From the NCBI GenBank assembly GCA_973895155.1, contig OZ316899.1, positions 11,657,775-11,721,774 of the forward strand: 64,000 bases of DNA, written 5' to 3'. Source of the stretch: Marsupella aquatica. Its lineage: Eukaryota; Plantae; Marchantiophyta. The notes under the pieces are model-generated. The model did not search any database. It saw nothing but the letters and a program-made list of their open reading frames with translations, and was not told the origin of the DNA. Each line of letters starts with the position of its first letter. Position 1 is the first letter of the stretch. The position numbers and the translations under genes were made by a program. Shown here piece after piece: positions 1 to 52,432 of the stretch.

Positions 1-111
1 CTTTTAAGAAATTAAAAAAATTAAAAACCCTTGTATATATTGGCTTATTTATTTACATGCATCATGCCAATAACACTAACGGTGACTTTATGTGACGGGG
101 ACCCCGTCACA
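1..111. mobile_element. Probable end of an LTR (ends ...CCCCGTCACA) inserted into the family-B LTR ORF
   Basis: Homology to the family-B ORF (MCGLLALNIFGV) stops abruptly at 112. The left flank is AT-rich and ends in ACA within a perfect palindrome (90-112). The other end is outside the window. Confidence 0.45.
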
Positions 112-1984
112 TCTACCCCAAAGATGTTGAGGGCAAGTAGTCCGCACATCCTCCCATATTCTAGGGCTCTGGAACGTGCATAGGTGGAGTGGTTAGGAGA
201 TGTCGGCATCTCCCAACGCAGCCTTCGTTCCCATGTTGCCCTCTGTATTTCATCAAACGTGGGCAAAGGCCCGGCTTGAGTCCCTGCAAGACGCCAAATG
301 TCCTCCGACCATCCTTTGCCTGACAAATCCTTCTCCTTGGCCAGGGTTGCTTCCTCCAGGTCACTAAATCGCTGCTGCAACTCGTGATCAACCTGTTGTC
401 TCTCATCGTAATTTGGAGGAGGTATGTCCGATGGGGGAGACTTTGGGGCCTTTTGGTGTTGTGGATCCCCACGCACCACTCTTGGAAGTGTGGGGATAAA
501 ACGGCCACAGGTTTGCACCCCTGGTACCGAGCAATCCGACCTGTAACCCAAGTCCTTGTGGTATTCCTCCACGTGCTCCCCGGCTTCCGGACATCTTGGT
601 GCCTGCGGATCCTCTCTAGGACTAGCCGCAAACCCGACATCATGCCGGGGACTATGTATGCGTGCGACTTGCTCTTCTGGCTCCCGCACCCGGCCTCTGC
701 TAGTGGGGGGTCCACCCCTATGGCTTTTGCACTCCTTCTCAAGACTGAGAACCCTGGGTCCATGTCCCTCGGATTCTGAACTGGAGTTTCCTACATACCT
801 TTGCATTCCCGGCTCATTTTCCGGCCTGCTTCTCTTCACGGCCCCGGCCATGGGTTCTCCTCTAGCTGTTCTTGCGGTGCCTGCTACCGCTGCCTCTGGT
901 GCTAATGCCGCCTTCTCCTTCTTTAGTATCTGTAGAAGATGGATTACGTTGGAGGTGAGATAGAAGTCCCTCCCGTAGATCTTGGTTGAGCTGGACTTGT
1001 GGTCCCATGATCCCACAAATTCCAGTAAGTCTGACTCCAACACCTTTGGCTTCAGCCACGGCAATCTAACAAAGTCCTCCAAGCCTGATCCGGCCATGAA
1101 GCCCTGGTACTTTTTGGTCTGCATGGCTGTAAAGCATGCATCCTCCTCTCGTGCAAAATGTAGCTATACCGCCGGCGGTATTATTGTTGCCCAGCCCTTC
1201 CAGGTGTCATCTCGGGTAGGGATGGCATTGACTGGGTCAACTTCCGGTTCCTTGGCTCCCTGCTCTCTCTGGCTCCCTTGTTTGGCCGGTCTTCTTGATA
1301 CTGTCAACCTTGTCCTCTTGGCTGGTGTGTTTTCTTTGTTGTTGGCCATCGTTCTCTTCATTTCAGCTGCTCCTGACAATTCTCCCAACACTGTTGCTTT
1401 CGCCCACACCGCCATCCAACCCTTCAGGTCCCAATGTTTGTCGTTGCAGTTGTTTATGGCTTGCCGAATGCCGACAATTCTATTGTCTTGAATTAGAAGA
1501 TTGTCAAGCCCATTGGCAATAGGTGTCCACACAATTCAGCCTTGATGAACTCTCCTCCTAAGAAGGCCAACTTTTGCAATTCCCACAGCCAAGCAAGCAC
1601 TTGTCGCTCGCGGGCTGCTCTTTCTAATTCTTCCTCCTTGTAGGTCCCAACGTACTCACTTGCCCGTTTGAACAGGCATCCCCAAAAATGTGTCGCTTGA
1701 TTGATGTTGCTCATTCCGTCCTTTGTCGTTGCTTGGTAGCTGCTTATGCCCCCGTGTTCTCCTTTGCAGTTGACAGTCGTTGGCTTCTGCTTGCACTCTG
1801 CTTGATCAAGGTGCAAAATGTGAGCCGCCACTCCTGGGTGACCTTGCCTTACCCCCCCTCCGGCTTGCGCTGCTTGCCTTGGTTACTGATTACCAATAGC
1901 CATCAGCATTAACGTGCCCTAACCCTAATTGCAACCCATAGTGGCCATTACTCCTCTTACTCCCGGCCTCGGCTTGGGTTCCAT
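112..1984 (-). pseudogene. Family-B LTR-encoded protein, disrupted copy (frameshifts, stop, ~180-aa internal deletion)
   Basis: ORFs 1493-1831, 1164-1532 and 45-1124 align with the 33058-35841 proteins (MSNINQATHFWGCLF; MQTKKYQGFMAGSGLEDFVRLPWL; CGRFIPTLPRVVRGDP). Confidence 0.85.
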
Positions 1985-2102
1985 GTATACCCTTAGTTGT
2001 TTATGGTTTCCTTGTTTTTCTCCCCCTTATACTAGTGGTTTTATTGTATACCACCCGGTTTTACCTCTTACATGGCCTAGTGATTCCTGGCTAGACATCA
2101 CA
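112..2102 (-). mobile_element. Family-B giant LTR, 5' portion, inserted into the integrase region of gypsy family C
   Basis: Reverse complement from 2102 reads TGTGATGTCTAGCCAGGAATCACTAGGCCA, matching the solo-LTR start at 32943 (TGTGATGCCTAGACAGGAATCACTCGGCCA). The encoded peptides are colinear with 33058-35370. Confidence 0.85.
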
Positions 2103-3058
2103 TTCTAATCTTAGAGACTCTGGGATGTACACACGCTTATGCTTGTATTTCCATAATTGGACATTATGCATGGTACCCTAAACCCTAAACCCCAATGAAA
2201 CGTGCCTCACCTTGTATTGGCTACCCCCATTGCTTTGCCATTCCTTGGCTAATTTGTCATCCCCATATGCCTTGGCCAGAACCTTTGGCCACTCGGATTT
2301 GAGCATCGTGATCCCATTGACACGATGATGCTCCCTACGCGATAACGCGTCAGCTGCCGTGTTTGTCTTCCCCGGAACGTGATGGACTTCAAAATCAAAA
2401 TCCACCAAGACCATCTGCTAGCTCATTTCCTTGGGGTTCAGCCTTGACTTAGAACTGAAGCACCCAGTCGGCAAGCTATCTGTGTGTATTACCAATTTGG
2501 GACCATTTTTAAGGTAAGTCTCTCACTTCTTCAACGCGTAGATCACTGCATGCATTTCCCTTTCCGGTGTGATCCAATGATTTTCCAACTTACATGACTC
2601 AAAGGCCACATGACGCCCGTCTTGGTGACGACAAGCGCCAATGGCGTAATCACTTGCGTCTGTCCAAATCTCAAACGGCTTCCCCATCTCAGGTAACTTT
2701 AGAATCGACAATGTTATCATCAGCCACTTTAGTTCTAGGAATGCTAACTTGCAATCTTGTGTCCACACAAAAACTTTGTTGTTCATCGTTAGCACGTTTA
2801 GGGGCCTCACAATCCTTGCATAGTCTTTCATGTATCTTCGATAGAACCCCGTAAATCCTAAGAAGGCTCTAACCTGCCTTACAGTGGATGGACGCTCCCA
2901 TTCTTTGATCTCCTTAAGCTTGTCCTGACTAGGCGTAATCCCCTCCGGGGTAAAGGTATGGCCAAGGAACTGAATCTCGTTCATCGCAAACTTGCACTTA
3001 CTAGGTTAAGCAAAGAGACGAGCCTTACAAAGGCAAGAGAACACTTCTCTGAGCAACT
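2103..3058 (-). pseudogene. pol: Family-C pol, 3' part (RT thumb, RNase H, start of integrase)
   Basis: ORFs 2523-2984 (FLGFTGFYRRY, TDASDYAIG) and 2178-2414 (HVPGKTNTAADALSR). Confidence 0.9.
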
Positions 3059-3413
3059 TGTGACGCTGCCGGTACAGCGGTTAATGAGTGATTCGGTCTA
3101 ACTGCGCTTAGCACGCGCGTTAGGAGTGTCTTAGGCCGGTATTATTAGCATAACAATAGTATTTAGGTAATCATTATGGGTAGGACATCATTAGGCAATA
3201 AGGGGGAATTCAGGTTCGGATTGGCGGCGGGTCGCTATTCGCACACCCGGGTTACGAGCGTGGAGGGGCCCCTCCCTCGGGTCCGTATAACGTACTTAAG
3301 AAGCGGCCACTAACACGCGCTGACTCAGACCGGCTGAGTGGCCGGTACACCACAAGCATGAGCGGTTCAGCCTATGGGCGTCGAGGAGATGTCGGGGGAT
3401 CGAGCCCTCAAGG

Positions 3414-3420
3414 TATAAAA
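3414..3420 (+). promoter_or_regulatory. Putative TATA box of the family-A LTR (TATAAAA; also present at ~13537 in the 3' LTR)
   Basis: GGTATAAAAGGGG lies ~355 bp into the LTR and ~105 bp upstream of the LTR ORF ATG at 3522. Confidence 0.6.
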
Positions 3421-3521
3421 GGGGAGCCAACCCTTTGTAGTGCACCAGTCCATCAGTCCACGCGCCAGCTTCGACCCCAGCTCTCTCGTTCGCTCTAAGT
3501 CGCCACTACTATCTCCTCTGA

Positions 3522-6181
3522 ATGTTGCACACAATCCTCTCCAGCTCGGCCATTCGATTCTGGATGCAGTTCCTATCTACCGGAAGGCACTTGGCCGACT
3601 CATTGAAACACGCCAACCCGTGCCGATACGAAATCGAACGCGAGTACGAGAGAGCCATCCGCCTAGCAGGACGACACCACTACATCCTTAACTTTGACTA
3701 CCCGTCTTAGAGCGAGCTTTACCGACCAGCAGAGGTATCTGGGTACTTCTTCAATGGAGACAAATATATCGGTTTCTGGGAAGCATTGCTTCGGCTTCCG
3801 GACAAGGTCTTCAATATCCCGGGTACGATCGACTTGCAACGACATCACTTCGACCACATCCCTGCTCAGGTTTGGGCTATCATCAACAGCGAGTCCAGCA
3901 CTACCCGTTCGACAAGGTCATCTGCACTCGCTTTGGAGAACTTCTACCAGCACCTACAGAGCTTCATGGGAACTCGACCATCAACCAACATGACCAACTC
4001 AGTTGAACCCGTACCCGTACCCATGCAACCTTAGGCTCAACCTCAGGCTCAACCTCAGGCTCAGCTTCAGCTTCAGCCGCAGCCGTAGCCTAGCCAAACC
4101 CCACCACCGATCGCCCAGCCAGCACAAGTACGCTCCATCATCAACGCTATGGATCTTAGCGATGACGACGAGGCTACCCCACCCTTGACCAGGCGGCCCA
4201 GAAGAACAAGCGCTTAGGGGGCCGACACTATATCGTCCCCACCCCCTGCTCTGACCCCAGGAGCGGCCCCGGCAGACAACATGGTGACCATGGCCGCCCG
4301 GGCCCGTTACTAACGGCAGTGGCACTACCCAGGCCCAATCGGGAGGATGGGGAAGTGTCAGCTTCCCCGAGCCAGTCATTGGGGAAGAAGAGGAAGGAAT
4401 CCACCACAACATTCGGGTTACCGTTGGCCACGGTAGCCATAGCCAAGGTGACAATGCACCGCATGGGGGAAAACGTTCACAAAAACATCCTCCATCCCAA
4501 GCATGCGGTGTACCTGAAGACTCAGGGATTCGAGCACCTCGCCTCCCTCCACTGGAACACTTGCAGGTACTACGGGGAGGACATGACGGAGTTCGTCAGG
4601 AATTATGATGACACGCGTCAACATACTCGGCTGCAGGGAAGGAGTATGTCCCTCACGGAAGAACGGCTCGGGATGATCTTCGGGTTACCCGAAGGTGACC
4701 ATCGAGTCGAATCACGGGCTCCCGGGGGCAAGGGAGCCAAGTACCAATCTTCAAGTTTTCCCTCAGAGGGAGCAGTGGACAACGGGTTCGTGATGAAGAC
4801 CTGCCTCATCCCCGAGATAGCTGAGCGACTGGAGTTCCAGAGGTACGCCCTCCACATGATGGAACCCCGGGGGGAGATCTCCGCCGCCCAGGTTATCCAG
4901 GTCGAGAACTATCGACCTAGGAAGTGGGCGTCGTACTTCGCTAAGAAATTCCATGAAGAGATGGAGCGGCGAAGGAAGACGCTGTACATTGGCGGGAAGG
5001 CGTATTTCGCTAGCCACATCGAGATCATTCTTGAGTGGTACGCCCGGTTTGATCGACGAACCCTTCCCCGTGTCAACGTTACAAAGCTGGTCCCAGCTAG
5101 GTGGGTTTTCCCGGCCTTGGAGAGACGGCCCCAACCCGAGGCCCGAAGTCCAGCGGACACGCCAGCTTCACCCACCCCACCTCCACAAGTAGCTGTAGTC
5201 GTAACCGAGGAGGTACCGGATGGGTCGGTTGTCGCAACCGTTGATGCGACCCAACAAGCCGGGCTAAGTACAGAAGTCGATACGGCGGAGGTCTTACCCG
5301 AGCCCGGGTCTCCCAAAGACCCACCGGTGGCTATTCCGGAGAACCGGACATTGCTGCAGGAGGACACTCTAGCCCCTTCCAACGTTACGTCCCCAGGGCT
5401 GGACGTCACTGCCCCGGCCCCCGCGCGTGTTGACGTCTGCCCGTGCCCAACTCCGGACAGGCACAACCTGGACCACCTGGAACTCTTCGTACCGGGTACA
5501 TTTCTGAACGGGCTTCTGGGAGATTTCTCTCATCAAATTGCCCGGGATATCGGGGACTTCATGGCCCGAAAGGTAGCCTGTTTCTTCAATCAGGAGTTGG
5601 TTGCCGTAGTAAAGGCAGGTCGGGCCCAGTCAGAGGCCCTTCAAAGGATAGAGCGGTACCGGGTGGAGTCCGTGTACCTAAAGAACGAAGTTGCGGCTCA
5701 AGAGGCTGAGCTTCTGGAACTACGACCCAAGGTTGCAGCCGCCGATGAGTTGTTAGCAAAGGCGCACGCTCTTACCGCCCTAGCCGAACAGGCCAAAGCT
5801 GGGAACGAGGCCGAGATTACACGACTCCGGAACCAGATTGACAGTTTGAAGAATCAAACCGTCACCTGGCAGAAAGACCTGGAGGAGGCCGAGGAACGAG
5901 CCCAGCGGGATACGGCGAAGATAGCCACGCTGCAGGCCGAGGTGGCGCGGCTCCAAACCGAGGCCGAGAAGCAGGACCAGCTGGCGGGTAAACTGACGAG
6001 CGACGCCCAGCAGCTGGAGGAGGCATGTCAGGAGGCAGCAGAGGAGACGGACGCGGCGAGGCGAGAGAACGAATCTCTGCTGGACCAGGTCCAGCTCCTC
6101 AAGGCGGACAATGACAGGCTTCGAAGGCAGCGGGATGGCCGCTCCCATTCGGGCGGCTCTGGCAAGCGTGCCAGGCATTAG
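3522..6181 (+). pseudogene. LTR-encoded ~886-aa protein (N-terminal domain, PQ linker, plant-transposon-protein/PMD-like core, coiled coil), 5' LTR copy
   Basis: ORFs 3522-3710, 3786-4034 and 4319-6181 join when four TAG stops (CAG in the 3' LTR) and a 1-bp deletion near 4300 are repaired from the other LTR. Confidence 0.85.
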
Positions 6182-7092
6182 CAGTGGAGTAGGAATAGAT
6201 TAGGATTAGGACTGGCTTAGTCAGGCTCTTGGGACAGGCACCTGCCTTAGGTACAGCAGCGCTGCCATGCTGTCCAGCCTGCGTAGATTAGGATCTTCTA
6301 ATAAGACACAGTCGTTTTCCGGCCTGACTGTCAGCTTAGTTAGGACCTTAGTCAGCGAATCTTCGGCAAGAGGACACCCCGTCCCTCGTCCCTTAGTATT
6401 TAGTGCACCCCTCGGTAGAGGCAAGGGGGGCGGTTTTAGTTGCAGAGTTGGACGTCCGCGGTATGTGCGGGGAGTCCCGACCTCTGGGAATGAAAGAGTA
6501 CCAAGAGGAGGGGGTAGGACTAAGCTCGCCGGGCGAGTGCGGAGCCGGGCTCCGTTGTAGTGTGCACCCTCGGCCTTGAACCTGTTCATTCCGGGGCTGT
6601 CGGGTCAACTAAGTGTACGCATATGTTCCCTTTGTAGTAAAATCCTTTCCCATCATTTTCCTTTGTGTAAATCGAGATTGTATGCATGTGCGCGTGTATG
6701 TGTGTGGGTTTCTCGTATATGGGTGGCAGCGCCAGGCCGAACGCACTACCCGAGATGTGCACAGGGTGCAGCCTGCGGGTAAGTGGTTGCGAGCACGGGT
6801 TGAGGACCTGTATCATCGAATCTGGATCAAAGGCGGACAGCACGAAGGCTTAGAAGCCCTTAAGCCGGGGTCGATCTTGCTATCCACTAAGGTACGTTCC
6901 GGCGGCGAAACACAAACCATACCTAGGAGGTGTCCGTATTTAGCAGTATGCGCACTTAGCGCTAGTTTACAAGAATAAGGTGCATTACGTGCTTCCCTTC
7001 CTGCCCGAACACTCAGATTTACGAGGGATGTGCCCGTCTAAGCTGAAGTCTGAGTTAAGGCCGCAGCCGACGACGTGACATAGCCTTTGTTT

Positions 7093-7111
7093 TGGTGCTA
7101 GATGGAGGGGG
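7093..7111 (+). other. Putative primer-binding site (TGGTGCTAGATGGAGGGGG), 12 nt after the 5' LTR; primer tRNA not identified
   Basis: First TGG-initiated tract downstream of the LTR end and upstream of gag. Confidence 0.5.
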
Positions 7112-7203
7112 CACTCTACATATCATAGAGGGGAGACATGTGCGTATTCACCTAGGTAGGATACATCAGGACGTAGTACTAACCATCGCATTTATATGAG
7201 TAA

Positions 7204-10200
7204 ATGCCCGTCACTCGTTCTCAAGCAGCTTACTTGAGGAGATTGACCAACGAACGAGAAAGTGCAACCACGACAAGTTCCGATTCTTCGGGCTCGGAGG
7301 ACTCGCAATCGCCCTGACGTATGAACATACCCCCGGGACCTTCGGGGTCCGGTTCGACCGGTCCTGCTGCGGTTCCTCCGCCACCACCACCACCACCGCC
7401 ACCTCCACCACCACCTATGGCAGCCGCTCCACCGATGGCCCGCGCTGCTCAAGCTCCTCCACAAATATTGCAACGATCGCGATTTCATTATCGACCTTTC
7501 AAGGGGCGTCATGGGGACGATCCGGATGAATGGTTGGATGAGTTTGAAGCCACTGCTAAAGCTAATGGGGAAGACGCCATTAAGCTAACCGTCCTCCCGG
7601 GAGTGATGCGGGGAGAAGCTCGTCCATGGTACAACTCGTTGCCACCCGGGACTACATGGGCACAATTCCAAGCTGCATTGCTGCAGGAGTTTCGTGCCAT
7701 TGGATCAGAATAGCGTTCTCTATTAAAGATTGGCCAGCTTCGCATGGGAAAGAAGGAGTCCCTACGGAAGTTCATTCAGAAGTTTCAGAAACTTGCGGCC
7801 AAGATCCGACCCAGGCCGGGAGATGCGCTCCATCTTACATGGTTCCTTCATGGTTTGCCCACGAATATGCAATTCTGGGTACGCCAGAATAATCCAATTT
7901 CAATGCAGGCGGCCATAGCGTGCGACGAAACTTACCGGGAGTCCACCTATAACTCCCGGCGGAGCCAGCGAGCACGCCGCAAGAAGGGTAAGTACGAGAC
8001 GTTCAGTGACAGTGACTCCGAATCGGACGACGAGAGGAAGAAGAAACGAAAGAAGAAGAAGAAACATCGTTCGACCTCGTCCAACTCGGAGACGGAATCC
8101 AGTTCGGATTCAGCTTCAAGCACCGGATCCTCTACCTCCAGTTCATCAGGAAGTGACTCGGAGAGCGGAAGCTGGAGCAAAAAGAAGAAGAGACGAGTGA
8201 AGAAGGAGGGGAAGATCAAACCCCGGGCGTGAAGAACGATACCAGATCCAAAGGCTGCCGAAGCAGACAAGCTGAACGAAATCACGGATCGACTCAAAGC
8301 ACTGTCAGTACATCTTGCGGAAAAGCCGGTGGAGAAGAAGCAGCCATCTGAGATTCGAGCCCATGCGTGGTGTTCAAAGTGCTTCCAATCCGGCCATGTG
8401 GTGCAGGAATGCCCAAGGTGGAAGAACCGAGTTCACCAAGTAGAGCTGGATGATGTTGACAACCCGGGTCCCGAATCGGAGTCCACGGAGTATTTCTTTG
8501 AGGACCCTCTTGATTCCGTGTACCAGATTTCAACGATAGGTCCGCGTAATTTAGCGGGTAGAACTGCGTACCCCTACCCAAACAATGGCCGGAGTTTCCA
8601 GGTTATCAGTAACCCGAGCATCCCTCCTAAGCCAGGGATTTGGCGATCCCCGGTTTGTTATAACTGTGAAAAGCCAGGACACTTTGCGAGGGAATGCACC
8701 GAACCAAGACGTCAGGGAGATGGCCGAGGCACCCCACTATGTCAAGTCTGCAAAACGGAGGCTCATTCCACGGCCAACTGTCCGTTGGTAATCGCTGCTC
8801 GAATGAGCGCAGCTAGACCGGCCCAGGCTGGACCGGCCACGAGCGATGCAGTCATCCAAATGATTGTTGTAGAATGGCAAGATGACAACACCAAGTGGGT
8901 GAATCTGGTGGACGTGGCGGAACACCCTAATCCATCTGACGAGGTTGAGTGCTATCGTGTGTCAACAAGAGCTGAACGGAAGGAAGAGAAGCAGGAGGAG
9001 AAATGCAGGAAAAAGCAAGATACTACTCCGGTGCAGCCAGCGATAGATATACCCCCGGAGAAGGACGATGACTACCGACGGGAAAACCCGAAGCTATTTT
9101 TCCCCCGCATCGAAGAATTGGTAAAGAAACAGCTGGAGGCTTACGAAGCTCGGGAATACCAGAAGGCAATCGATAAGGACATCAAAGCAGCCGAGACAGC
9201 CCGGCGACAGGAGCAAGAAAAGCAAGATAAACAAGAGGAAGCCAAGCAACAGCCGAAGGAAGAAACGAAGGAGGACTATGATATTAAGGAGGACGTGAAG
9301 AGTTGCCCGGTTACAGCGACGGTGGGGCAACTGCTGCAGAACAACCCACAGTACAGACGGCAACTAAGGGAGTTGCTCATGGGTCGCCGAAGGAGGAGAC
9401 TACCCCGAGTTGGGATCGCGGACTGCAACATGATATACGAGGACCTTGGAGCGCCGGACATCTCGATCGAAATTAATAATTGTACCATCAAGATGGTTCT
9501 TGTAGACGGAGGAGCGGGAGTCAACATCATGACTGAAGAAACGTCAGTCAAGTTAGGATACCTCACGTATCAACCCACAGCCCGAGCTATCAGATTAGCA
9601 AACGGGGCAAGGGTCCTCCCATTAGGCACGCTCACACGAGTGCTCACTCTGGTGGGAGGGGTGGAGTTCTATCTCAACTTCCTAGTTATGAGGCCGGTTC
9701 GTCCCTCCTCTTACCCGGTTCTTCTGGGCAGGCCGTGGCTGTACGGTGGCCGCGTAGTCACGGATTGGGGAAAGAAGGAGCTACGGTTCGGGGAACCCAC
9801 CGTACGGGTATCATGGGCAATGGACGATTATCAGGGAGAAACCCCACAAGGACCCGAGGAATATGATTCGGAGACCTCGGAGGAAGAGGAACTCAATATG
9901 ATTGAACTCATCTCGTCCCTGTCCGAGGAAGATGTCTTCGGAGTTGAAGCAACCCGCAAAACACATCTCCTAAATTACCCGAGGGCTGCCATTGAGTCCA
10001 CCCCAAGCACATCTACTGTCGGGGATGAGGAAAAGCACGAACAACTCGTCGAGACGGAGGACATGGCTCCAACTAAGCAGGGAGCCGAGGCTGCTTCTAC
10101 CATTGCAGAGCCTCGTAACCACGAACCAGTCCAACAACCGCCCGAGGCCGAAAACTCGAGACCGAGACATAAGAAACGAGTCTCATGGGATCCGTCCATT

Positions 10201-13200
10201 CCGCATTTGGAGGAAGTAACTCCAATCCCGAGACCAATCCCGGTTCCACCCATGTACGGAGGAGTTCGGTTAGCTGAGCTTGATGCAAGCCTGGACCCGA
10301 GCCTACGAAACCAGGTTGAAGTCATCAGGAAGGAGCACTACCGGAAGTACACTATTGGGATGGACAAATCTTTTAACCTGGGCCACGCTCTGACAGGGGA
10401 GGCTGAAAAATCCATCCAAGCTTTGCTCAAGGAATATGAAGATGTGTTTGCATGGAGTCATCATGATTTAACAGGCGTCTCCCCCGAGTTGGGAGAACAC
10501 ACGATCGATCTGAACCTAGGAGCCCATGCGGTACGGCAGCGACAACATCGCATGAACCCGAGGTACTCCATCTTAGTGAAGGAGGAAATTGATCGTCTCC
10601 TCGCCGCCAATATCATCTACCCGGTAATGGCCAACGACTGGGTCTCTCCCATTGTCATTGTACCAAAGAAGGGAGGTACGGATGGAAAACCTAAGATTCG
10701 TATTTGTCAGGACTACCGTAAGCTGAACAACGCAACCCGAAAAGACCATTACCCATTACCATTCAGGGATATGGTTCTAGATATGGTAGCCCGAAATGAA
10801 ATCTATACATTTCTTGACGGGTATTCAGGTTATAACCAAATCTGGATTCGCCTCGCGGATCAGCTCAAAACAACTTTCACTACGGAGTGGGGGACTTTCG
10901 CATTTCGGAGGATGCCTTTCGGTCTGTGTAACGCCCCGACCATGTTTCAGTGCCTTATGATGAATATCTTCCACGATTTCCTACGGGAATTTCTGGAGAT
11001 ATTTATCGATGACTTTGCCATCTTCGGAACCGTTGCCATGCACCCCGAACACCTAAGACGAACGTTGCAACGATGCCGAGATGTTAACCTCAAACTACAT
11101 CCCACCAAATGCTTCTTCGGGGTAGAGGAGGGGGTGTTACTCGGGCATCGTGTGTCCAAACGGGGCATTGAGGTGGACCAAGAGAAAGTTGCGGCCTGGA
11201 TGGCAGTGGTGTTCCCCGTGGATCAAAAAGTAGTACGATCCTTCTTGGGCTGCGTAGGGTATTACCGTCGGTTCATTAAAGATTTTGCTAAAATAGCTTT
11301 GCCCTTAACAGAGATGATGAAAACGGACGCGGTGATCGAGGAGACCCCAAGGAGACGGGTTGCTTTCGAAGAACTCCGTAAAAGACTCACCACCGCACCT
11401 ATCATGGTCACTCCAGACTGGAACAAGGAGTTCCACGTGTATGTCAACGTGTCAGGGTTCTGTATCGGGTCTGTGCTTAGTCAGCTTGATACGGACGGAC
11501 GCGATCACCCCATCTACTTCGCTAGCCGTCAATTATTCACAGCCAAAAAAAATTATTCCCCCACGGATCGAGAGGCACTGGGCATAATCTACTCATGTAA
11601 GAAGTTCCGGCACTATCTGCTCGGCTACAAGGTCATCTTCCACACGGATCACGACAGCCTGAAGTACATGGTCAACAAAGCAGACATAACGGGACGGATA
11701 GCCCGTTGGGTGCTACTTCTCCAGGAATTTAACTACGAAGTTTGGGTTCGGCCAGGAAAGGCACACCTCAATGCCGACTTCTTTTCACGGCTGGACGGCG
11801 TACCAGTCGATCAGCCAATTGATGATATTTTTCCGGATGAGGAGTTGTTCCACATAGGGGAGGGGACACCAACGTGGTACGGCTCAATAATCACCTTCCT
11901 TTTAACGGGCCGCATCCCTGACGGCATCAATCAGGAGGCCGCCGTTGTGTTTTTACGGAACGCCGGGCCTTACGTCATGATACAGGGTCACCTACATAAG
12001 GAAGGTATTAATGGAAAGTTACGACGCTGCTTAGAGTATAAGGAGATGCTTATCGTGATGCGGGCCCTGCATGAAGAAGAAGCTGGAGGCCATTTCGCGG
12101 TGGTCACGACAGCCCGAAAGATTCTGGACTCGGGGTATTGGTGGCCTACGTTGCATCGGGATGTACAGCGCTTCATTAAGGGCTGTGACTTGTGTCAGCG
12201 AGTTGGGGCCCCAAGGCGGGCTCATCATCACCCGCTCACATCTGTGCTTCCATTGGCACCATTCGAAAAATGGGGAATTGATTATATCGGGTCGTTTACT
12301 CCCGTTACCCGAAGGCGAAGATGCAGGTACATCCTACTAGCTATTGATTACTCCACCAAGTGGGTCGAAGCGCGGGCTACGGTAAAGGACGACGCCGCAA
12401 CCAGTGCCAGATTCTTATACGAACAGATTTTCACCCGATTCGGCCCGCCCTTAGAATTGGTAAGCGACCGTGGAACCCACTTCCTCAATGACACCGTAGT
12501 CCAGCTTACGGAGCATTACCTAGTCAAGCACCGCAAGACTACCCCGTATCATCCTAAAGCCAACGGGATGGCGGAGAGAGCAAATGGTATCATTGGGAAG
12601 ATCCTCAACAAAACAGTAGCTGCGCACAAAACGGATTGGGATGATAAGTTGTACGCAGCGGTGTACTCGTATAATCTAGCTTACAAAACTACTACGAGTC
12701 ACAGCCCGTACTTTCTTGTGTTCGGCCAACATTCGTTGGTGCCCGTCGAGTTTGAAGTACACACTCCACGGGTCAGCATTCGGGATCGCTTACCTGAATC
12801 TGAAAGTTCGTCAGACCGAGCTTATCAGATTGAAGCCTTGGAAGAAGCATGGCTACTAGCAGCTCGACATGCCGTGAAGAAACAGGCAACTTTGAAGAAG
12901 CAGCACGACAAAGGACTACGGAGGGTCGACGTCGTGGCAGGCGTCTAGTCCTTCTATACGATAGTAGGTACATGCAGTTTCCAGGGAAGCTTCATACCCG
13001 GTGGTTAGGGCCCTTCCTTGTCAATCAGATCTACCGTAACGGATCTTTGGAGCTTGCGACGTATGCCGGCGATTTACTCCCCACGCGAATCAGCTACGAT
13101 CGTGTAAAAAAGTACCACCATCAAGATGACGACGCCGAGAGTGATGTTCGTGAGGACGCTTCACAATTAAGCAGGGAGCTATGTGACGCCGCCGGTACGG

Positions 13201-13214
13201 CGGTTAATGAGTGA
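7204..13214 (+). pseudogene. gag-pol: Family-A gag-pol polyprotein (Gag, 3 CCHC knuckles, protease, RT, RNase H, integrase)
   Basis: Single frame from MPVTRSQ (7204) with three stops (7315, 7711, 8230) and one frameshift near 12945. Motifs: LVDGGAG, FLDGYSGYNQI, FIDD, HHCC, GIDY/SDRG/ERAN, and the Athila-type VLLYDSR..FPGKL..RWLGPF. Confidence 0.95.
13165..13181 (+). other. Polypurine tract region (AATTAAGCAGGGAGCTA)
   Basis: Purine-rich tract directly abutting the 3' LTR start. Confidence 0.6.
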
Positions 13215-16200
13215 TTCGGTCTAACTGCGCTTAGCACGTGCGTTAGGAGTATCTTAGGCCGCTATTATTAGCATAACGATAGTATTTAGGTCATCATTAT
13301 GGGTAGGACATCATTAGGCAATAAGGGGGAATTCAGGTCCGGACTGGCGGCGGGTCGCTATTCGCACACCCGGGTTACGAGCGTGGAGGGGCCCCTCCCT
13401 CGGGTCCGTATAATGTACTTAAGAAGCGGCCACTGACACGCGCTGACTCAGACCGGTGGAGTGGCCGGTACACCACAAGCGTGAGCGGTTCAACCTATGG
13501 GCGTCGAGGAGACGTCGGGGGATCGAGCCCTCAAGGTATAAAAGGGGAGCCAACCCTTTGTAGTGCACCAGTCCATCAGTGCACGCGCCAGCTTCGACCC
13601 CAGCTCTCTCGTTCGCTCTAAGTCGCCACTACTATCTCCTCTGAATGTCGCACACGATCCTCTCCAGCTCGGCCATTCGGTTCTAGACGCAGTTCCTATC
13701 TACCGGAAGGCACTTGGCCGACTCATTGAAACACGCCAACCCGCGCCGATACGAAATCGAACGCGAGTACGAGAGAGCCATCCGCCTAGTAGGACGACAC
13801 CACTACATCCTTAACTTTGACTACCCGTCTCAGAGCGAGCTTTACCGACCAGCAGAGGTATCTGGGTACTTCTTCAACGGAGACAAATATATCGGTTTTT
13901 GGGAAGCATTGCTTCGGCTTCTGGATGAGGTCTTCAATATCCCGGGTACGATCGACTTGCAACGACATCACTTCGACCACATCCCTGCTCAGGTTCGGGC
14001 TATCATCAATAGCGAGTCTAGCACTACCCGTTCGACAAGGTCGTCTGCACTCGCTTCGGAGAACTTCTACCAGCACCTACAGAGCTTCATGGGAACTCGG
14101 CCATCAACCAACATGACCAACTCAGTCGAACCCGTACCCGTACCCATGCAACCTCAGGTTCAACCTCAGGCTCAGCTTCAGCTTCAGCCTCAGCCGCAGC
14201 CTAGCCAAACCCCACCACCGATCGCCCAGCCAGCACAAGTACGCTCCGTCATCAACGCTGTGGATCTTAGCGATGACGACGAGGCTACCCCACCCTTGAC
14301 CAGGCGGCCCAGAGGAACAAGCGCTCAGGGGGCCAACACTATATTGTCCCCACCCCCTGCTCTGACCCCAGGAGCGGCCCCGGCAGACAACATGGTGACC
14401 ATGGCCGCCCGGGGCCCGTTACTATCGGCAGTGGCACTACCCAGGCCCGATCGGGAGGATGGGGAAGTGTCACCTTCCCCGAGCCAGTCACGGGGGAAGA
14501 AGAGGAAGGAATCCACCACTGCATCCGGGTTACCGTTGGCCACGGTAGCCGTAGCCAAGGTGACGATGCACCGCATGGGGGAAAACGTTCACAAAAACAT
14601 CCTCCATCCCAAGCATGCGGTGTACCTGAAGACTCAGGGATTCGAGCACCTCGCCTCCCTCCCCTGGAACACTTGCAGGTACTACGGGGAGGACATGACG
14701 GAGTTCGTTAGGAATTATGACGACGCGCATCAACATACTCGGCTGCAGGGAAGGAGTATGTCCCTCACGGAAGAACGGCTCGGGATGATCTTCGGGTTAC
14801 CCGAAGGTGACCATCGAGTCGAATCACGGGCTCCCGGGGGCAAGGGAGCCAAGTACCAATCTTCAAGTTTTCCCTCAGAGGGAGCAGTGGACAACGGGTT
14901 CGTGATGAAGACCTGCTCCCCGAGATAGCTGAGCGACTAGAGTTCCAGAGGTACGCCCTCCACATGATGGAACCCCGGGGGGAGATCTCTGCCGCCCAGG
15001 TTATCCAGGTCGAGAACTATCGACCTAGGAAGTGGGCGTCGTACTTCGCTAAGAAATTCCATGAAGAGATGGAGCGGCGAAGGAAGACGCTGTACATTGG
15101 CGGGAAGGCGTATTTCGCTAGCCACATCGAGATCATTCTCGAGTGGTACGCCCGGTTTGATCGACGAACCCTTCCCTGTGTCAACGTTACAAAGCTGGTC
15201 CCAGCTAGGTGGGTTTTCCCGGCCTTGGAGAGACGGCCCCAACCCGAGGCCCGAAGTCCAGCGGACACGCCAGCTTCACCCACCCCACCTCCACAAGTAG
15301 TTGTAGTCGTAACCGAGGAGGTACCGGATGGGTCGGTTGTCGCAACCGTTGATGCGACCCAACAAGCCGGGCTAAGTACAGAAGTCGGTATGACGGAGGT
15401 CTTACCCGAGCCCGGGTCTCCCAAAGACCCACCGGTGGCTATTCCGGAGAACCGTACATTGCTGCAGGAGGACACTCCAGCCCCTTCCAACGTTACGTCC
15501 CCAAGGCTGGACGTCACTGCCCCGGCCCCCGTGCGTGTTGACGTCTGCCCGTGCCCAACTCCGGACAGGCACAACCTAGACCACCCGGAACTCTTCATAC
15601 CGGGTACATTTCTGAACGGGCTTCTGGGAGATTTCTCTCATCAAATTTCCCGGGATACCGGGGAGTTCATGGCCCGGAAGGTAGCCTGTTTCTTCAATCA
15701 GGAGTTGGTTGCCGCAGTAAAGGCAGGTCGGGCCCAGTCAGAGGCCCTTCAGAGGATAGAGCGGTACCGGGTGGAGTTGGTGTACCTAAAGAACGAAGTT
15801 GCGGCTCAAGAGGCTGAGCTTCTGCAACTACGACCCAAGGTTGCAGCCGCCGATGAGTTGTTAGCAAAGGCGCACGCTCTTACCGCCCTAGCCGAACAGG
15901 CCAAAGCTGGGAACGAGGCCGAGATTACACGACTCCGGAACCAGATTGACAGTTTGAAGAATCAAACCGTCACCTGGCAGAAAGACCTGGAGGAGGCCGA
16001 GAAACGAGCCCAGCGGGACACGGCGGAGATAGCCACGCTGCAGGCCGAGGTGGCGCGGCTCCAAACCGAGGCCGAGAAGCAGGACCAGCTGGCGGGTAAA
16101 TTGACGAGCGAAGCCCAGCAGCTGGAGGAGGCATGTCAGGAGGCAGTAGAGGAGACGGACGCGGCGAGGCGAGAGAACGAATCTCTGCTGGACCAGGTCC

Positions 16201-17187
16201 AGCTCCTCAAGGCGGACAATGACAGGCTTCGAAGGCAACGGGATGGCCGCTCCCATTCGGGCGGCTCTGGCAAGCGTGCCAGGCATTAGCAGTGGAGTAG
16301 GAATAGATTAGGATTAGGACTGGCTTAGTCAGACTCTTGGGACAGGCACCTGCCTTAGGTACAGCAGCGCTGCCATGCTGTCCAGCCTGCGTAGATTAGG
16401 ATCTTCTAATAAGATACAGTCGTTTTCCGGCCTGACTGTCAGCTTAGTTAGGACCTTAGTCAGCGAATCTTCGGCGAGAGGACACCCCATCCCTCGTCCC
16501 TTAGTATTTAGTGCACCCCTCGGTAGAGGCAAGGGTGGGTTTTTAGTTGCAGAGTTGGACGTCCGCGGTATGTGCGGGGAGTCCCGACCTCTGGGAATGA
16601 AAGAGTACCAAGAGGAGGGGGTAGGACTAAGCTCGCCGGGCGAGTGCGGAGCCGGGCTCCGTTGTAGTGTGCACCCTCGGCCTTGAACCTGTTCATTCCG
16701 GGGCTGTCGGGTCAACTAAGTGTACGCATATGTTCCCTTTGTAGTAAAATCCTTTCCCATCATTTTCCTTTGTGTAAATCGAGATTGTATGCATGTGCGC
16801 GTGTATGTGTGTGGGTTTCTCGTATATGGGTGGCAGCGCCAGGCCGAACGCACTACCCGAGATGTGCACAGGGTGCAGCCTGCGGGTAAGTGGTTGCGAG
16901 CACGGGTTGAGGACCTGTATCATCAAATCTGGATCAAAGGCGGACAGCACGAAGGCTTAGAAGCCCTTAAGCCGGGGTTGATCCTGCTTTCGACTAAGGT
17001 ACGTTCCGGCGGCGGAACACAAACCATACCTAGGAGGTGTCCGTATTTAGTAGTATGCGCACTTAGCGCTAGTTTACAAGAATAAGGTGCATTACGTGCT
17101 TCCCTTCCTGCCCGAACCCTCAGATTTACGAGGGATGTGCCCGTCTAAGCTGGAGTCTGAGTTAAGGCCGCAGCCGACGACGTGACA
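13182..17187 (+). repeat. Family-A 3' LTR (4006 bp)
   Basis: Copy of 3059-7080, followed by TSD CAACT. Confidence 0.97.
13645..16289 (+). pseudogene. LTR-encoded ~882-aa protein, 3' LTR copy
   Basis: ORFs 13714-14928 and 14964-16289. Only one early TAG (TGG in the 5' LTR) and a 4-bp deletion near 14916 break the frame. Confidence 0.85.
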
Positions 17188-17192
17188 CAACT

Positions 17193-20100
17193 GCTCATGT
17201 TCCTTCCAACATTTTTGAGTAGATCAAGATGTTGTCTATAAAGACTACCACTCCTTGGTCTAACAAGTCATGAAAGATGGTATTCATCATCTTCATGAAA
17301 GTTACGATTGCATTACACAATCCAAATGGCATAACCAAAAATTCATAGGATCCCAACCTTGTGCGTATTGCGGTCTTATACTCGTCTCCCTTGGCCATGC
17401 GGATCTGGTAATACCCAGACCGCAAGTCCACCTTTGAAAACTTCTTAGCCCCAGAGAGGCAATCAAAGAGGTCATCCATATGAGTTAAAGGATACTTGTT
17501 CTTTACCGTTTGCTTATTGAGGGCCCAATAATCTGCGCACAATCTCAAAGTACCATCCTTTTTGGACATAAACAGCGTGGGCGCCCCCCAGAAAGACTCT
17601 TACTAGGACGAATGAACCCTTGGTTGATCAACTCTTCCAAGGCGTTCTTCAACATCATTTGTTTGTTCAAATTCAAACGATAAGGAGCTTTAGTCTGAGG
17701 AGCCAAACCTGGCTCCAACTCAACTTGGTTATCCACTTCTCTCTGCGGGGGTAAACCTTTAGGTAGCTTTTGTGAGAGCACATCATTGAATTCCTCTAAA
17801 ATTTCAGGAATTTGACTACAGTTGGGCCTGACCTTAGCTGACTTAACCTTTGGCTGCAAAGCAACCTCCTTAACTGGGTGGAGATGAAAGAAAAAACATT
17901 CATGTCCATCCTTGAGTCTTTCCACCATTGCTTCGCCGATACACACGGAGACAAACACGACACATTACTTACTTTGAGAAATCTTTCATTGTTTTTGGTA
18001 ATTTCGTGTACAACGATGGGCTCACTGCCCTTATTGCAAAAATGGAGCACCTCATCCCTCAGTTTCAAGGTAACATTATGTTTTCTGAGATAACCTACCA
18101 ACAAATTGAAGTCTATGGTTAGACCGTCTAGAACGTAGAACATCTCCTGACTAACAAAATCTTGTTGTTTGCCTATGACCTTTACACGAAGTCTATGTAC
18201 AACTCTTGACACTATCCCTTTTGTATCGTTGACAAACTTGCACACTAATGGTTGTAGAAACTCTTGCACGTCCACCCCAAGACGTGTCGTTGCCTACTCA
18301 CTTATGAAGCAGATGGTCGCGCCTGTATCCACTAAAGCAACACCCAGATTATTGTTAGAAGTGACATTCACAAAAATCAACTTTTCAGGATCGATTGTCT
18401 TAATCTTAGGTACCTTCTCTCGCAACAACCCTTTCTCTCTGGCAGGAACATCCCCTACAGGGACCTCATCAACTACTAAGGGATCGGTTAGAGCGATACT
18501 TACCTTAATGCCCTTCTGCCCTCCATCTCCGCTTGGCTTGCCACCTTTCGAGGGGCAATCCTTACTTTGATGGCCCATGGCGCCACATGTGTAGCACAAA
18601 CCTTCAGCCCGCCTCTACTCCATGAGCGCTTGTTTCTTCGCTTTTTGCACTGATGAGGTTCCTTTCTTGAAGTTGTTGGCCTTCCAGTTGCACTTTGCTT
18701 CTCCATTTTGGGGCTGAGGATCCAAACCACCGGCCTCCCGCCCCCTCCTACTGCTTTTGCTTGTTTCCGGGACCTTTTGCTTTCCCAACTTCCCCCTCGG
18801 ATCCCTTGCCACCCACCTTCGCCAAGTCCGGTCGTTTATTCACCAACGTAGTGGCTTTGTCAAAGGCGTCATAAAGCGTTTTAAACTCATGACGCTTTTC
18901 CTGTAAATTTCCCCTAAGCAACGGGAGGAGCTTCACTATAAAGTTATGAAGCTGCGTGTGTAGGGTCTCCTATCCCGCCGGGATACACGCCAAGTGGTTC
19001 TAGTAATAAGTGATGAACTTTTGGATATCACCCCTGAAGCTCATCTCCGTTACACATTTCTGAGGGTGCCGCTTTGGGTACTTAGTGGTGACATGAGCAT
19101 GGAGGCTCTCAACCAGGTTTTCCCAGTTAATGGCAAGGGGGAGTCCTCTCGCGACTTCTTCCAAGACTTGTACCAAGTCAAGGCATAGTTCTTTAGGTAA
19201 GGAGCGGCTACGGTAGCCCAAGTGGACCGCTCAACGCACGCTTGGAGATGAATCATTCTCCATTGTGGAGAGCCAACTCAGGAACTTTTGCCCACTTTGT
19301 TCATAGGCCCCGTCGTAAGTTGGAGGAGTCGATAGCTGGTTGACTTGGAACATACTCCATCCAACTACCATTCCCCCCTCAGGATGCGTCGCACTTTGAC
19401 TACCCAGACTAAGTAAGTCCTTAATCTGGGCCCCCTTGTTGTGTTCCAATTGCTCATAAATGAGTCGTTGGTCTTGAGTCAACGGACCCAAATCGTCGTG
19501 AGCGGCTGGGCCCTTGCGGATAGTATGAGGATGGTCCTCCAACCACCTTTCCTCTACGGGCCGCTAGTCGTGGAACTTGACTACCTTAACACTTAGCTCC
19601 GGCATCGCTGACTCCGACGCCGAGCTCCCTTATGGTCCAGGCCTGGATAGGCCATCCGGGGAGGACTTAGCATGGAGAGACTTGTGGGCAATGAGACGTG
19701 GCACTAGCAAAGGCAAGGCGCCAAGCTGATGACACACACTAAGGACTTAGACTAGCTGAGAGTTGGTCGGGTCAAAGGGAAAAGGGCCGGGCTCAAGGTT
19801 GACCGTCCGAACCCCTAGACAGACTTTGAGTTTTGAGAGCTTGAGTGAGAGCTCCTCTTGGGCCCAAGGCCAATGGAGTTGACGCCATGGGCAACGGACG
19901 CTTGGGGACACCCTTAGCCCCTGTCCTTAGGTTCTCTAGTGGACTTTGGTGACACCCCCCGCGACTTGCAGGCACCGTGACCTCCCGGGCTGAGGCATCA
20001 CCCGCATCGCTCTGATTTTTCTTGGTCAAATTATCCACATTGACATCCGGCTTGACATCATCCTCTGGTTCCGCATCCAACCCTCTTAAGGCTAGGATCA

Positions 20101-30125: not shown

Positions 30126-30154
30126 TGGCAAGCCCGCTACAGGCCATCTCTTAT

Positions 30155-32942: not shown

Positions 32943-35900
32943 TGTGATGCCTAGACAGGAATCACTCGGCCAGTTAAGTGGGTAAAGCAGGAATGCACCC
33001 TGGAAACACCTTAGTATAGGGACAAAACAAGGAAAATATAAACAATTAGGGGCGACTATGGAACCCGGGCCGAGGCCGGAGGTAAGGACGTTGGGGGTGA
33101 AAACTCAATTAGGGTTAGGGCGCGCTAAGCGTCGGCGGCTAGGAAGGATCAACGGGAGGAAGGACCGGAAGAGGAGAGGGGTAAGGAGCACTTGCAGGAG
33201 ATGGTGGCTCATTTGCGAGCACGAACTAGGCAGACGACTACGAGAGGCCAACTACTGTCAGCTGCTTAGGCAAGCACTCGGAGAGAGAGTAGATACCAAC
33301 GATCGACCTAAGGAGGGTATGAGCAACGTCAATCAAGCGACACATTTCTGGGGATGCCTGTTCGAACAGGCAACTGAGTACATCAAGACTTACGAGGACG
33401 AGGAATCAGAAAGGGCAGCTCGAGAACGACAGGAGCTCGCTCGATTGTGGGAGCTGCAGAAGACGGCTTTCTTAGGAGGCGAACTCATCAAGGACGAGTT
33501 CTTGTGGACTCCTACTTCCAATCAGCTCGACGATCTTCTATTTTGCGAAGACAGAATCATCGGCATTCGAGAGGCCATCAAGAACTGCAACGACATACAC
33601 TGGGAATTGAAGGGTAGCACGGAAAGGTGGACCCAGGCAACGGTGCTAGGAGAAACCTCCACGGCAGCAGAGATGAAGAGGAAGGGAGCCATCAACGATG
33701 AAGCCACCCCGACAAAAAGAACGAGGTCGGCGGCACCAAAGAAGCCAGCCGACCAGCAGAGCAGGAGGCAGGGAGAAGCCGAAGAGGAGGAGGTCGATCC
33801 CATCAATGCCATTCCAACTAGGGATGACACCTAGAAAGGCTGGGCGGCAACCCTACCGGTGGAGGTGCAACTACATTTTGCACGGGAGGAGGATGCATGC
33901 TTTACGGCCATGCAGACCACGAAGTACCAAGGCTTCATGGCCGGATCCGGCTTAGAGGCCTTTGTAAGATTACCATGGCTGAAGCTGGAGGTACCGGATT
34001 CAGACCTATTAGAATTCGTGGGGTCATGGGAACCCGAGACCAATTGCACGAGGATATATGGGAAGGATTTCTATCTTACTCCCAAGGTGATTGCCGAAGT
34101 GTTTGGCTTGCCGATAGGCAATAAGACCAAAGTTGATACCAGGAAGACCTTGCCTGACAAGGAGTTCCGGTCGTTCCCCGGGCCATCAACAAAGAATGGC
34201 TTCTTCCGGAACACCTGCACCAACCCACACATAGGAGAGATGATCGACTTCTTGCGGGTGACCATGCACTGTAACTTGCCGAGGGCAGAGATCGGCAAGG
34301 CACAGGTCTATCTGGCAGAGAGGCCAGACCCAAGCCGGGACTACAACGGGTACCTCCTCAACCAATTGAAGAAGATCTTAAAGGAGGAGCAGCAGGTAAT
34401 CGGCATGGGGAGCGTGTCGCGACTTGGCTATCACATGCCGCTGTTGTGCCGGTATGCCAGAGGACAGACCTTTGCCCCAGTACTTCCCCTGCAGGTAAGG
34501 GCACCCGAGGAAGCTCCAGCACCGAGGCCGGTAGCAGAGAAGCCTCAACCACCTGTTAGCCCTACGATCGAGCAGGTGTTTAGGCCAAGGAAGGAAGACT
34601 TGCCGATGCAGCAACCTGGCATGCAGAATCTGCTGAAACTACTGGAGAAAGAAAAGAGATCGGCATCGGCAACGACAACGGCAACGGCAACAATGCAGGA
34701 CACTACTCCAGAGGTAGGCCTACACCGGCTTACAAGGGAAAACCCTTTTACTGGAGACAAGGAGAGAATCAGGCCATAATCCAAGCCGGGTGTTCGAATG
34801 TACGTGGGAGTCTCAAGCTCTGAATCTGAGGCAAAATTGCCTGAAGCTCCTACCGACGAAGAGGAGAGGGAGAAGCCGGAAGTCCAAGAAGTAGAGGAGG
34901 CAGTGGAGGACTGCAGCCATGATAACTCCGGCTATGGGTCGGACCATCACGTTCCAGGAGTAAGGACCTGTGGCCGGTTTATCCCCACACTTCCAAGGGT
35001 AGTACGAGGGGACCCCAACCAGCAAAGTAGCCCTGAGTCTCCCCCACCAGATGTTGCTCCCCCGAGCTTTGACGGCATAAAACAGACGGCGCAGGAATTT
35101 CAGGAGCGAATCAGGCAGGCAGAGGAGGCAGCCCTGGCTAGGGAAAAGGATTTGCCAGGAGGAGATTGGCCAGAGGACATCAAGCGGCTAGCCAAAAAAG
35201 GAAGCAAACCTCTAGCCACGATTGAAGAGATCCGCAAGACGGCTTGGGAGCAGAGGCCGCGGTGGATGATGCCGATGACTTCTACTTCCTCCACCTATGG
35301 TAAAGATAGAGCCATGGAGTACGGGGAGATGTGTGGAGAACTGGCGCTCAGCATCCTTGGGGAGGAGTTGGAGCAGGGACCCTTTTTCCAGAGGGAGATG
35401 TTGGAGAAGCGCCAATTAGAAGAAGCGGTGGCCTTGGAAAGAAGCAAGAAGGACGAGGTCATCCGTCGGCTTAGGGAAAGGGAAGCCGAAATCAAGGACC
35501 TGAGGGTGGCCAAGAAAGCCCAAGATGAGCTGCGGATTAAGCGACATGAGCTAAATATCATGCAAGGCCAGTTGGATACCGCACAATCTGATAATCGGAT
35601 GATCGAGAATCTACTAACGCGGACCCAAGGAGAGTTGGCCGATACGATCAAAGAGAGGGAGAAGTGGAAACGAGAGCTGAGGAATGCAGAGGAGGCCCAC
35701 ATAACAGCCAACAACCGGGCCATGGCGGAGACCCAAAGAAAGGAATGGGCGTTGAAGGAGGAGCTCCAGAAAATCCGCGGAGCCCTTGAGCAGAAGGAGG
35801 CCGAGTTAGGGAAATCCTATCAAGGGATTATGGCGTTGTAGCAGGAGCTTGCGTCCCTGACGGCCAGCTTCAAGGCCGACCTACGGGAGAAGGACGAGAT

Positions 35901-52386: not shown

Positions 52387-52432
<46 letters not shown>

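Follow-up and report, generated by a model that had tools for sequence, protein, structure and literature searches.

The window analysed here, a 64,000-nucleotide stretch of the liverwort Marsupella aquatica (contig OZ316899.1, positions 11,657,775 to 11,721,774; coordinates below are counted from its first letter), contains a Ty3/gypsy retrotransposon that we call element A. An open reading frame (ORF) of about 886 codons lies inside each of its two long terminal repeats (LTRs). We describe this LTR ORF, its relatives in two other repeats of the window (repeats B and C) and in public data, and the arguments for and against regarding it as a gene carried by the LTR itself.

Element A and the reading frame in its LTRs

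Both LTRs of element A open with TGTGACG and close with GTGACA, and they align over their full length (blastn; see Table 1), with 107 substitutions (86 transitions) and four indels between them (Kimura two-parameter distance 0.027). In the internal region, the gag-pol proteins P0006 and P0008, used as tblastn queries, place the gag capsid part at 7465-7944, in a broken frame. A 1,571-codon polyprotein frame follows at 8233-12948, and the C-terminal part of pol reaches 13127. Pfam identifies zf-CCHC (141-157), RVT_1 (810-973), RNase H (1039-1166) and integrase (1275-1441) in this frame, and a protease at 411-503 matches below threshold. The order gag (zf-CCHC), protease, reverse transcriptase (RT), RNase H, integrase is that of Ty3/gypsy elements (Metaviridae). 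No chromodomain family is among the Pfam matches, so that element A does not class as a chromovirus, nor is there an additional archaeal-type RNase H (aRH), the only such matches being RT_RNaseH and RT_RNaseH_2. The closest named proteins to pol come from the liverworts Riccia (53-54% identity) and Marchantia (47%), and a metagenome protein is closer than these, at 73%.

Element A inserted cleanly within the RT gene of an older, minus-strand gypsy-like element: amino acids 1122-1252 of P0006 match 17596-17219, and amino acids 1262-1509 match 3053-2331 (tblastn). Because the interrupted RT frame is colinear across the insertion, the LTR ends of element A are fixed independently of the LTR alignment. 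The older element (1-3058 and 17188-18614, minus strand), about 32-38% identical to element A in pol, has been hit twice, since repeat C begins at 2102 within it, in the linker that follows RNase H and leads to the expected integrase. No integrase of the older element is seen in the window.

The LTR ORF lies wholly within the LTR (3522-6181 in 3059-7080), and likewise in the 3′ LTR. It opens with an ATG at 3522 or 13645, ahead of which a TGA stands in frame, and closes with a TAG at 6179-6181 or 16287-16289, from which 899 bp remain to the LTR end. It does not class as an internal extra ORF (aORF or eORF), because it is located in the LTR, not in the stretch from primer-binding site (PBS) to gag or in that from pol to the polypurine tract (PPT). 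A TATAAAA, the predicted promoter, sits 356 nt from the LTR start, and the first ATG downstream of it is that of the LTR ORF in both copies. Past the ORF stop, motif scans find one weak hexamer resembling a polyadenylation (poly(A)) signal as their best match, and four further one-mismatch variants in 6194-6979.

Neither LTR has an intact gene, and this copy of element A is dead. The 3′ LTR carries sense codons where the 5′ LTR ORF has stops 3708, 4086 and 4215; stop 4032 falls in one additional 12-bp tandem unit, absent from the 3′ copy; and the 5′ copy has a sense codon at the site of the TAG at 13684. The tandem array concerned, of 12-bp (6-bp) units, CAACCTCAGGCT, occupies 4026-4063 and 14152-14206 and codes for a glutamine- and proline-rich linker in the product of the LTR ORF, and one LTR has one unit more than the other.

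A preliminary description of this DNA, made from the sequence alone, had proposed a gypsy element with TG..CA ends and a CAACT target site duplication (TSD), and the same frame in both LTRs, starting after TATAAAA and ending about 900 bp before the LTR end. Both proposals are borne out, and every lesion that it listed is present, with the one qualification that only three of the four 5′ stops face a 3′ sense codon. It had also named PBS and PPT neighbours for the LTRs. The PPT is a short purine-rich tract, and the candidate PBS is noncanonical, the first TGG sitting 13 nt past the 5′ LTR; we found neither a self-priming complement for element A nor a tRNA gene in the 64-kb window.

Table 1. 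Coordinates of element A, the LTR ORF, its relatives and the surrounding older element
Feature	Position	Strand	Remarks
Ty3/gypsy element A	3059-17187	+	Two LTRs flanking gag-pol region
TSD CAACT, left copy	3054..3058	.	Sequence read; repeated at 17188-17192
5′ LTR	3059..7080	+	4,022 bp; TGTGACG...GTGACA; blastn 96.9% identity to 13182-17187
TATAAAA	3414..3420 (13537 in 3′ copy)	+	Sole TATA[AT]A[AT] match in LTR; predicted promoter, putative function
LTR ORF, 5′ copy	3522..6181	+	About 886 codons; stops 3708, 4032, 4086, 4215; 1-bp loss 4299
Conserved central domain of LTR ORF	4499..5176	+	BLASTP to repeat B, HMMER relatives; no Pfam family
C-terminal two-helix region and basic tail	5504..6145	+	AlphaFold2 prediction, coiled-coil-like
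AATGAA	6489..6494	+	Best, weak poly(A)-signal-like hexamer past ORF stop (motif scans)
Internal region	7081..13181	+	6.1 kb; gag then polyprotein frame; Pfam, and tblastn with P0006, P0008
PPT-like purine-rich tract	13169..13178	+	3 nt before 3′ LTR; short, one C interrupts
3′ LTR	13182..17187	+	4,006 bp; alignment to 5′ LTR
LTR ORF, 3′ copy	13645..16289	+	Stop 13684; 4-bp loss after 14915
TSD CAACT, right copy	17188..17192	.	Sequence read
Older gypsy-like element	17195..18614	-	zf-CCHC 18614-18294, RT 17599-17195 (Pfam)
Older gypsy-like element, other side of insertion	3053-2331	-	RT/RNase H (tblastn)
Repeat B	32943..35841	+	TGTGATG terminus; tblastn 27.6% over 185 aa, E 4e-18 to LTR ORF
Repeat C	1..2102	-	TGTGATG terminus at 2102; frame-shifted homologue of B ORF; window edge cuts

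Coding signature and relatives of the LTR protein

Is the LTR ORF a gene? When GC content is taken by codon position, the second position (GC2) is lowest, a coding pattern that holds in every part of the frame. The in-frame codon usage correlates with that of the element's own pol (r = 0.70 in the centre and at the C-terminal end, 0.46 in the N-terminal part), as against r of -0.10 to 0.11 for the shifted frames. By these codon statistics the LTR ORF is evidently a real gene.

Two further repeats in the window bear on this point. The frame of repeat B comprises 951 codons (32986-35841) with two internal stops, and the central domain of the LTR ORF is 27% identical to it over 228 amino acids (BLASTP, 80.9 bits); the C-termini of the two ORFs resemble each other weakly, and between the LTR of element A and repeat B there is no DNA similarity. 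Repeats B and C are 67-72% identical in DNA. Their similarity starts exactly at TGTGATG, and the flanks upstream of it are unrelated, with a long interspersed nuclear element (LINE) before repeat B and RT/RNase H before repeat C. Because the similarity begins exactly there behind unrelated sequence, TGTGATG has the look of an element terminus, and it resembles the TGTGACG of element A. The distance from terminus to start codon is about 375 nt in repeat B (probable start) and 463 nt in element A. No pol or other Pfam domain was found near or downstream of repeat B, which fits a solo LTR. A profile search of all ORFs in the window found no further family members beyond the two copies in A, B and C. 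The LINE directly upstream of repeat B is of plant type (26400-32215, minus strand), with an RVT_1 frame at 27607-29043 and a DUF4283 frame at 30599-32215.

We compared B with C over 517 codons (Nei-Gojobori) and obtained a ratio of nonsynonymous to synonymous divergence (dN/dS) of 0.23 (pN 0.29, pS 0.66). Shifted-frame controls of the same alignment give 0.91 and 1.27, and the differences fall on the three codon positions as 175, 141 and 263. The ratio is approximate, as the alignment is protein-guided and dS is near saturation, and it covers B versus C, not family A. Judged by this codon comparison, the gene has been under purifying selection between the diverged copies B and C.

Relatives are also found outside the window. 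An exhaustive HMMER search with a profile of the A and B central domains against 1.84 billion representatives gives 68 at E ≤ 1e-3, 24 at E ≤ 1e-10 and two at E ≤ 1e-30. Word-indexed protein searches with the LTR ORF and with its central domain returned none, and these are misses, given the HMMER relatives found later. Among ten clusters looked up, three are named "unnamed protein product [Calypogeia fissa]," after a liverwort, and the rest come from assemblies and metagenomes. The Calypogeia fissa relatives, among them CAM6082161.1, CAM6090539.1 and CAM6101870.1, are multi-copy: one cluster has six members, and several are on one contig. Most informative is P0205, an unbroken protein of 906 amino acids on a 3,633-nt contig in public data. 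It is 31% identical to the LTR ORF over 667 amino acids (261 bits), and the two are colinear from the N-terminal region through the central domain and the helical tail to the basic end; the N-terminal part of P0205 also matches the LTR ORF (E 2e-12). None of 40 HMMER matches and five longer members has a Pfam family above the cut-off, and the sub-threshold matches include a weak one of P0203 to DDE_Tnp_4 and one of P0212 to DUF7310 (E 0.0015). A scan of viral contigs found no relatives of the LTR ORF. We rejected one metagenome locus, L001, as a chance match; it has 34% GC, is densely coding, and has a coiled-coil match only, with no central domain.

What kind of protein might this be? Pfam at E-values up to 10 gives no match to the central and N-terminal parts, and sequence profiles from the PDB give the family nothing, or chance-level interferon matches at E of about 0.5. 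The central domain is followed by a proline-rich linker, and the protein carries the basic patches KKRK, RRRK and KRAR. For the last 246 residues (5441-6178), AlphaFold2 run on the single sequence predicts two helices (residues 22-117 and 123-235 of this part; 96 and 113 residues) with a mean predicted local distance difference test score (pLDDT) of 77.4; Pfam coiled-coil matches to the C-terminal region are weak and sub-threshold only. For the central domain, a two-row alignment gives a mean pLDDT of 37.6, too poor for fold comparison. A language model offers ATHILA ORF-1, Transposase_32, DUF1985 and PMD as look-alikes (scores 0.79-0.86), which are weak leads; for Transposase_32, PMD, Transposase_28 and ATHILA ORF-1 the scores are 0.79-0.84. 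Profile comparison of A, B and 45 relatives yields no significant match to Transposase_32 (PF20167), PMD (PF10536), Transposase_28 (PF04195) or ATHILA ORF-1 (PF03078). Against PF20167-bearing proteins, hhalign gives probabilities of 1-7.5% and hmmsearch is empty.

Further family copies were read from contigs of four public runs placed on the LTR. Those covering it number 8,478 in one run (X1) and 12,812 in another (X2), and range from more than 99% to less than 90% alike. The summed contig depth, which is not copy number, is several-fold higher over the LTR, including the ORF, than over the internal region (83,000-360,000 versus 18,000-42,000 in X1), a weak hint of many solo LTRs. The runs show no recurrent intron in the LTR contigs, all joints being single-contig events. 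Within 3500-4330, the LTRs differ by 30 substitutions, and at 13 of these the family contigs agree with the 3′ copy. All 13 of these differences, which are assignable to the 5′ LTR and include stop 4215, are C>T or G>A, a bias consistent with methylated cytosines having been deaminated while the repeat was silenced. Stop 4215 is private to the 5′ copy, since 20 of 20 contigs in the four runs read otherwise. At stop 3708, letters other than that of the stop make up less than 20% of depth in each of the four runs. Placement of contigs over the CAACCTCAGGCT array is unstable.

The rest of the window holds several features of other kinds. A pair of direct repeats of about 570 bp, 92% identical and 2.5 kb apart (52305-52849 and 54824-55393), may be a small LTR element or a terminal-repeat retrotransposon in miniature (TRIM). 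Two probable host gene exons lie in the AT-richer right half, one with a RING/U-box-like zinc finger (zf-RING_4; 47444-48760, plus strand) and one with an NSD-type PHD finger (61036-61764, minus strand). An inverted repeat of about 340 bp with 82% identity (19566-19907 and 21690-22008) lies to the right of the older element's gag.

Weighing an LTR-resident gene against its alternatives

The 4-kb LTRs of this Ty3/gypsy element each hold a real gene, decayed here, of about 886 codons. We consider it likely that this is a conserved accessory gene resident in the LTR, and it would be transcribed from the TATA box as the first ORF. Since relatives of the LTR protein exist elsewhere, one of them unbroken, LTRs are likely to be gene carriers in this lineage. 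The preliminary description had suggested just this, an accessory gene that is part of the LTR in a whole lineage and is kept by solo LTRs; the clean insertion, the homologues in B and C with their dN/dS of 0.23, and P0205 support it. Its further claim that the ORF was most likely intact at insertion has fared less evenly, being helped by the private stop 4215 and weakened by the data for stop 3708.

How might such a gene work? Transcription would start about 30 nt past TATAAAA, leaving a short U3 (the region unique to the RNA 3′ end) of roughly 3059-3445. The LTR ORF would then lie within R (the region repeated at both RNA ends), or within R and U5 (the region unique to the 5′ end), as the first reading frame of an LTR-initiated RNA. 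Polyadenylation in 6190-7000 would let any LTR, a solo LTR too, yield a monocistronic mRNA, and read-through in the 5′ LTR would yield genomic RNA. The protein is predicted to be an oligomeric nuclear factor that could serve the family in trans, for example in the handling of genomic RNA or in anti-silencing. This putative role is suggested by the KKRK and KRAR basic patches, the two-helix C-terminus of about 215 residues, and an analogy with the CERV protein of Caenorhabditis elegans.

Several observations weigh against an LTR-resident gene of this kind or against parts of it. The LTR ORF of element A has been decaying neutrally since insertion, because substitutions between the LTRs are spread evenly inside and outside the ORF (75, or 0.028 per nt, versus 32, or 0.023 per nt) and across its codon positions (26, 22 and 27). 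Many family copies may share stop 3708, or a change may have occurred there in the 3′ copy; because the stop is possibly common, it is uncertain that the first 62 codons were intact when element A inserted. Around stops 4032 and 4086, in the 12-bp tandem stretch, two contig placements disagree, for example at position 4079. In their N-terminal parts, A and B show no significant similarity, the score of 42 being reached by one of 500 shuffles. Neither B nor C has a partner LTR in the window, and no 3′ end with a target duplication was found for repeat B, the candidates at 37031 and 37616-37624 being at chance level. The comparison with relatives outside the window covers their protein sequences. 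The putative transcription start, poly(A) site and U3/R/U5 borders are placed by one TATA box and weak hexamers, and the PBS is noncanonical. Finally, a long ORF ahead of gag in the genomic RNA is a problem for translation of gag-pol.

This last difficulty would disappear if the LTR ORF lay in U3, like sag of mouse mammary tumor virus (MMTV). Genomic RNA would then start at a TATA-less promoter near the LTR 3′ end, and the ORF, expressed from its own TATA promoter or through a spliced or 3′-coterminal RNA, would be present in the genomic RNA a single time, at its 3′ end. Such a layout has the retroviral precedent of sag, keeps an 886-codon ORF that would hinder gag translation out of the 5′ leader, and leaves about 900 bp of LTR past the ORF stop that could hold R and U5. 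We nevertheless think it improbable. The sole TATA box, 356 nt from the LTR start and upstream of the ORF, speaks against it without settling the matter; 6182-7080 contains no second promoter motif, only a TATA 4-mer at 6716; and a comparable short U3 with a long R, drawn from motifs, is given for Retrosat2 (PMC3485330).

A different doubt concerns not the layout but the role of the ORF, which might be a gene captured or hitch-hiking from the host, or else what is left of a different mobile element, that landed in an ancestral LTR and is carried passively, with no part in the retrotransposon's life. Plant retrotransposons do transduce pieces of host genes, as a review relates (PMC7264820), and the neutral decay of the two copies in element A, the annotation of the Calypogeia fissa relatives as ordinary proteins, and the weak DDE_Tnp_4 match of P0203 would all suit a passenger. 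A passenger would hardly be expected to sit at one offset behind an LTR-like terminus in families whose DNA is no longer similar, nor to show the dN/dS found between B and C or a full architecture kept in a relative of only 31% identity, and the Calypogeia fissa relatives are multi-copy, as repeats are; we rate capture as somewhat less probable again than a U3 location. By far the least credible alternative is that recombination, nesting or assembly produced the 4-kb LTRs in a single event and that the true LTR of the family is short. The noncanonical PBS and the presence of only one full-length copy of element A in the window are what one could cite for it. Against it, the repeats end at identical bases with a perfect 5-bp duplication in an interrupted, colinear RT frame; thousands of contigs in the four runs span the whole LTR, with depth over the ORF at least that over the LTR ends; and B and C open with a terminus of this kind, followed about 375 nt later by their ORF.

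Returning to an LTR-resident accessory gene as the preferred reading, it is tempting to extend it, although the extension is speculative and we would sooner expect it to fail than to hold. In a bryophyte gypsy group the LTR itself might be a gene, with a short U3 promoter and an ORF of about 900 codons in R, present at both ends of the genomic RNA and rebuilt at each transposition. It could be expressed from thousands of solo LTRs as a dispersed gene family for a nuclear coiled-coil factor, and the choice of poly(A) site could switch between mRNA for the factor and genomic RNA.

Comparison with known systems

In two reviews and a survey that concern plant elements, extra ORFs have a different place. 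One review takes them by definition to be internal-region ORFs (PMC7264820), another, on giant elements, calls the long terminal repeats noncoding (PMC6431247), and the survey gives extra ORFs just two classes, 5′ and 3′ of the polyprotein (PMC6317226). The first two agree with what the preliminary description had taken as prior knowledge, that such ORFs normally lie in the internal region. In literature searches we came upon no retrotransposon described as carrying an ORF within its LTRs, with the reservation that the supplementary eORF positions of PMC6317226 could include some.

LTRs are treated as noncoding control regions, annotation pipelines and reviews seek extra ORFs between the LTRs, and LTRs as long as 3-6 kb usually go without an explanation. 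A gene resident in the LTR, if real, would account for LTR length in this lineage, and solo LTRs, usually counted as dead remnants, could stay coding. The place of the gene in the replication cycle would change too, for R and U5 are copied by strand transfer and the gene would be at both RNA ends. There would also be an unnamed protein family (central domain plus two-helix tail), seemingly confined to liverwort-type genomes, that could be tested for RNA export, nuclear entry or escape from silencing.

One precedent for the location is viral. MMTV carries its superantigen gene, sag, in the U3 of the LTR, and other retroviral genes overlap U3; sag is much shorter than the LTR ORF. As in MMTV, a coding frame within the LTR is carried by every LTR. 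In contrast to this mammalian retrovirus, where the gene is in U3, the TATA box upstream of the frame in element A suggests a place in R/U5, and the sequences are unrelated.

Among plant elements, the closest parallels are ORF0 of Retrosat2, RIRE3 and RIRE8 and ORF1 of Ogre, which are likewise on the sense strand upstream of gag-pol in elements with LTRs above 3 kb and have no assigned role (PMC3485330). ORF0-type ORFs are reported there to evolve faster than pol (PMC3485330). Rice Retrosat2 shares with element A a TATA box near the LTR start, with a short U3 and a 2-kb R, and the LTR end ...CGTGACA; its motif-inferred layout is U3 1-244, R 245-2266 and U5 2267-3292 (PMC3485330). However, that work puts ORF0 and Ogre ORF1 upstream of ORF1 in the element and says that the LTRs do not code (PMC3485330), whereas the ORF of element A is upstream of the PBS, in the LTR, and so occurs twice per element and in solo LTRs; it is by these descriptions that we set it apart from ORF0 and ORF1. 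In addition, the aRH in pol that marks the Tat clade (Retrosat2, RIRE3/8, Ogre, Retand; PMC6317226) was not found by Pfam in element A.

In the build of the protein, the LTR ORF recalls the named extra-ORF domains of plant gypsy elements, namely Transposase_32 (PF20167) with the coiled-coil DUF7310, PMD, Transposase_28 and ATHILA ORF-1, which also appear as a globular domain followed by a coiled coil (PMC6317226); in angiosperm gene models, unlike in element A, the Transposase_32-type domain follows the integrase. For function, an analogous case is CERV of the C. elegans element Cer1, a lineage-specific gypsy accessory protein that has no homologues outside its clade and acts in the nucleus on export of genomic RNA (PMC10309623). 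CERV and the LTR ORF protein have no sequence relation, and the analogy is one of function only. Taken against these systems, the LTR ORF is a retrotransposon accessory ORF with a new placement, encoding a member of a protein family that has no name.

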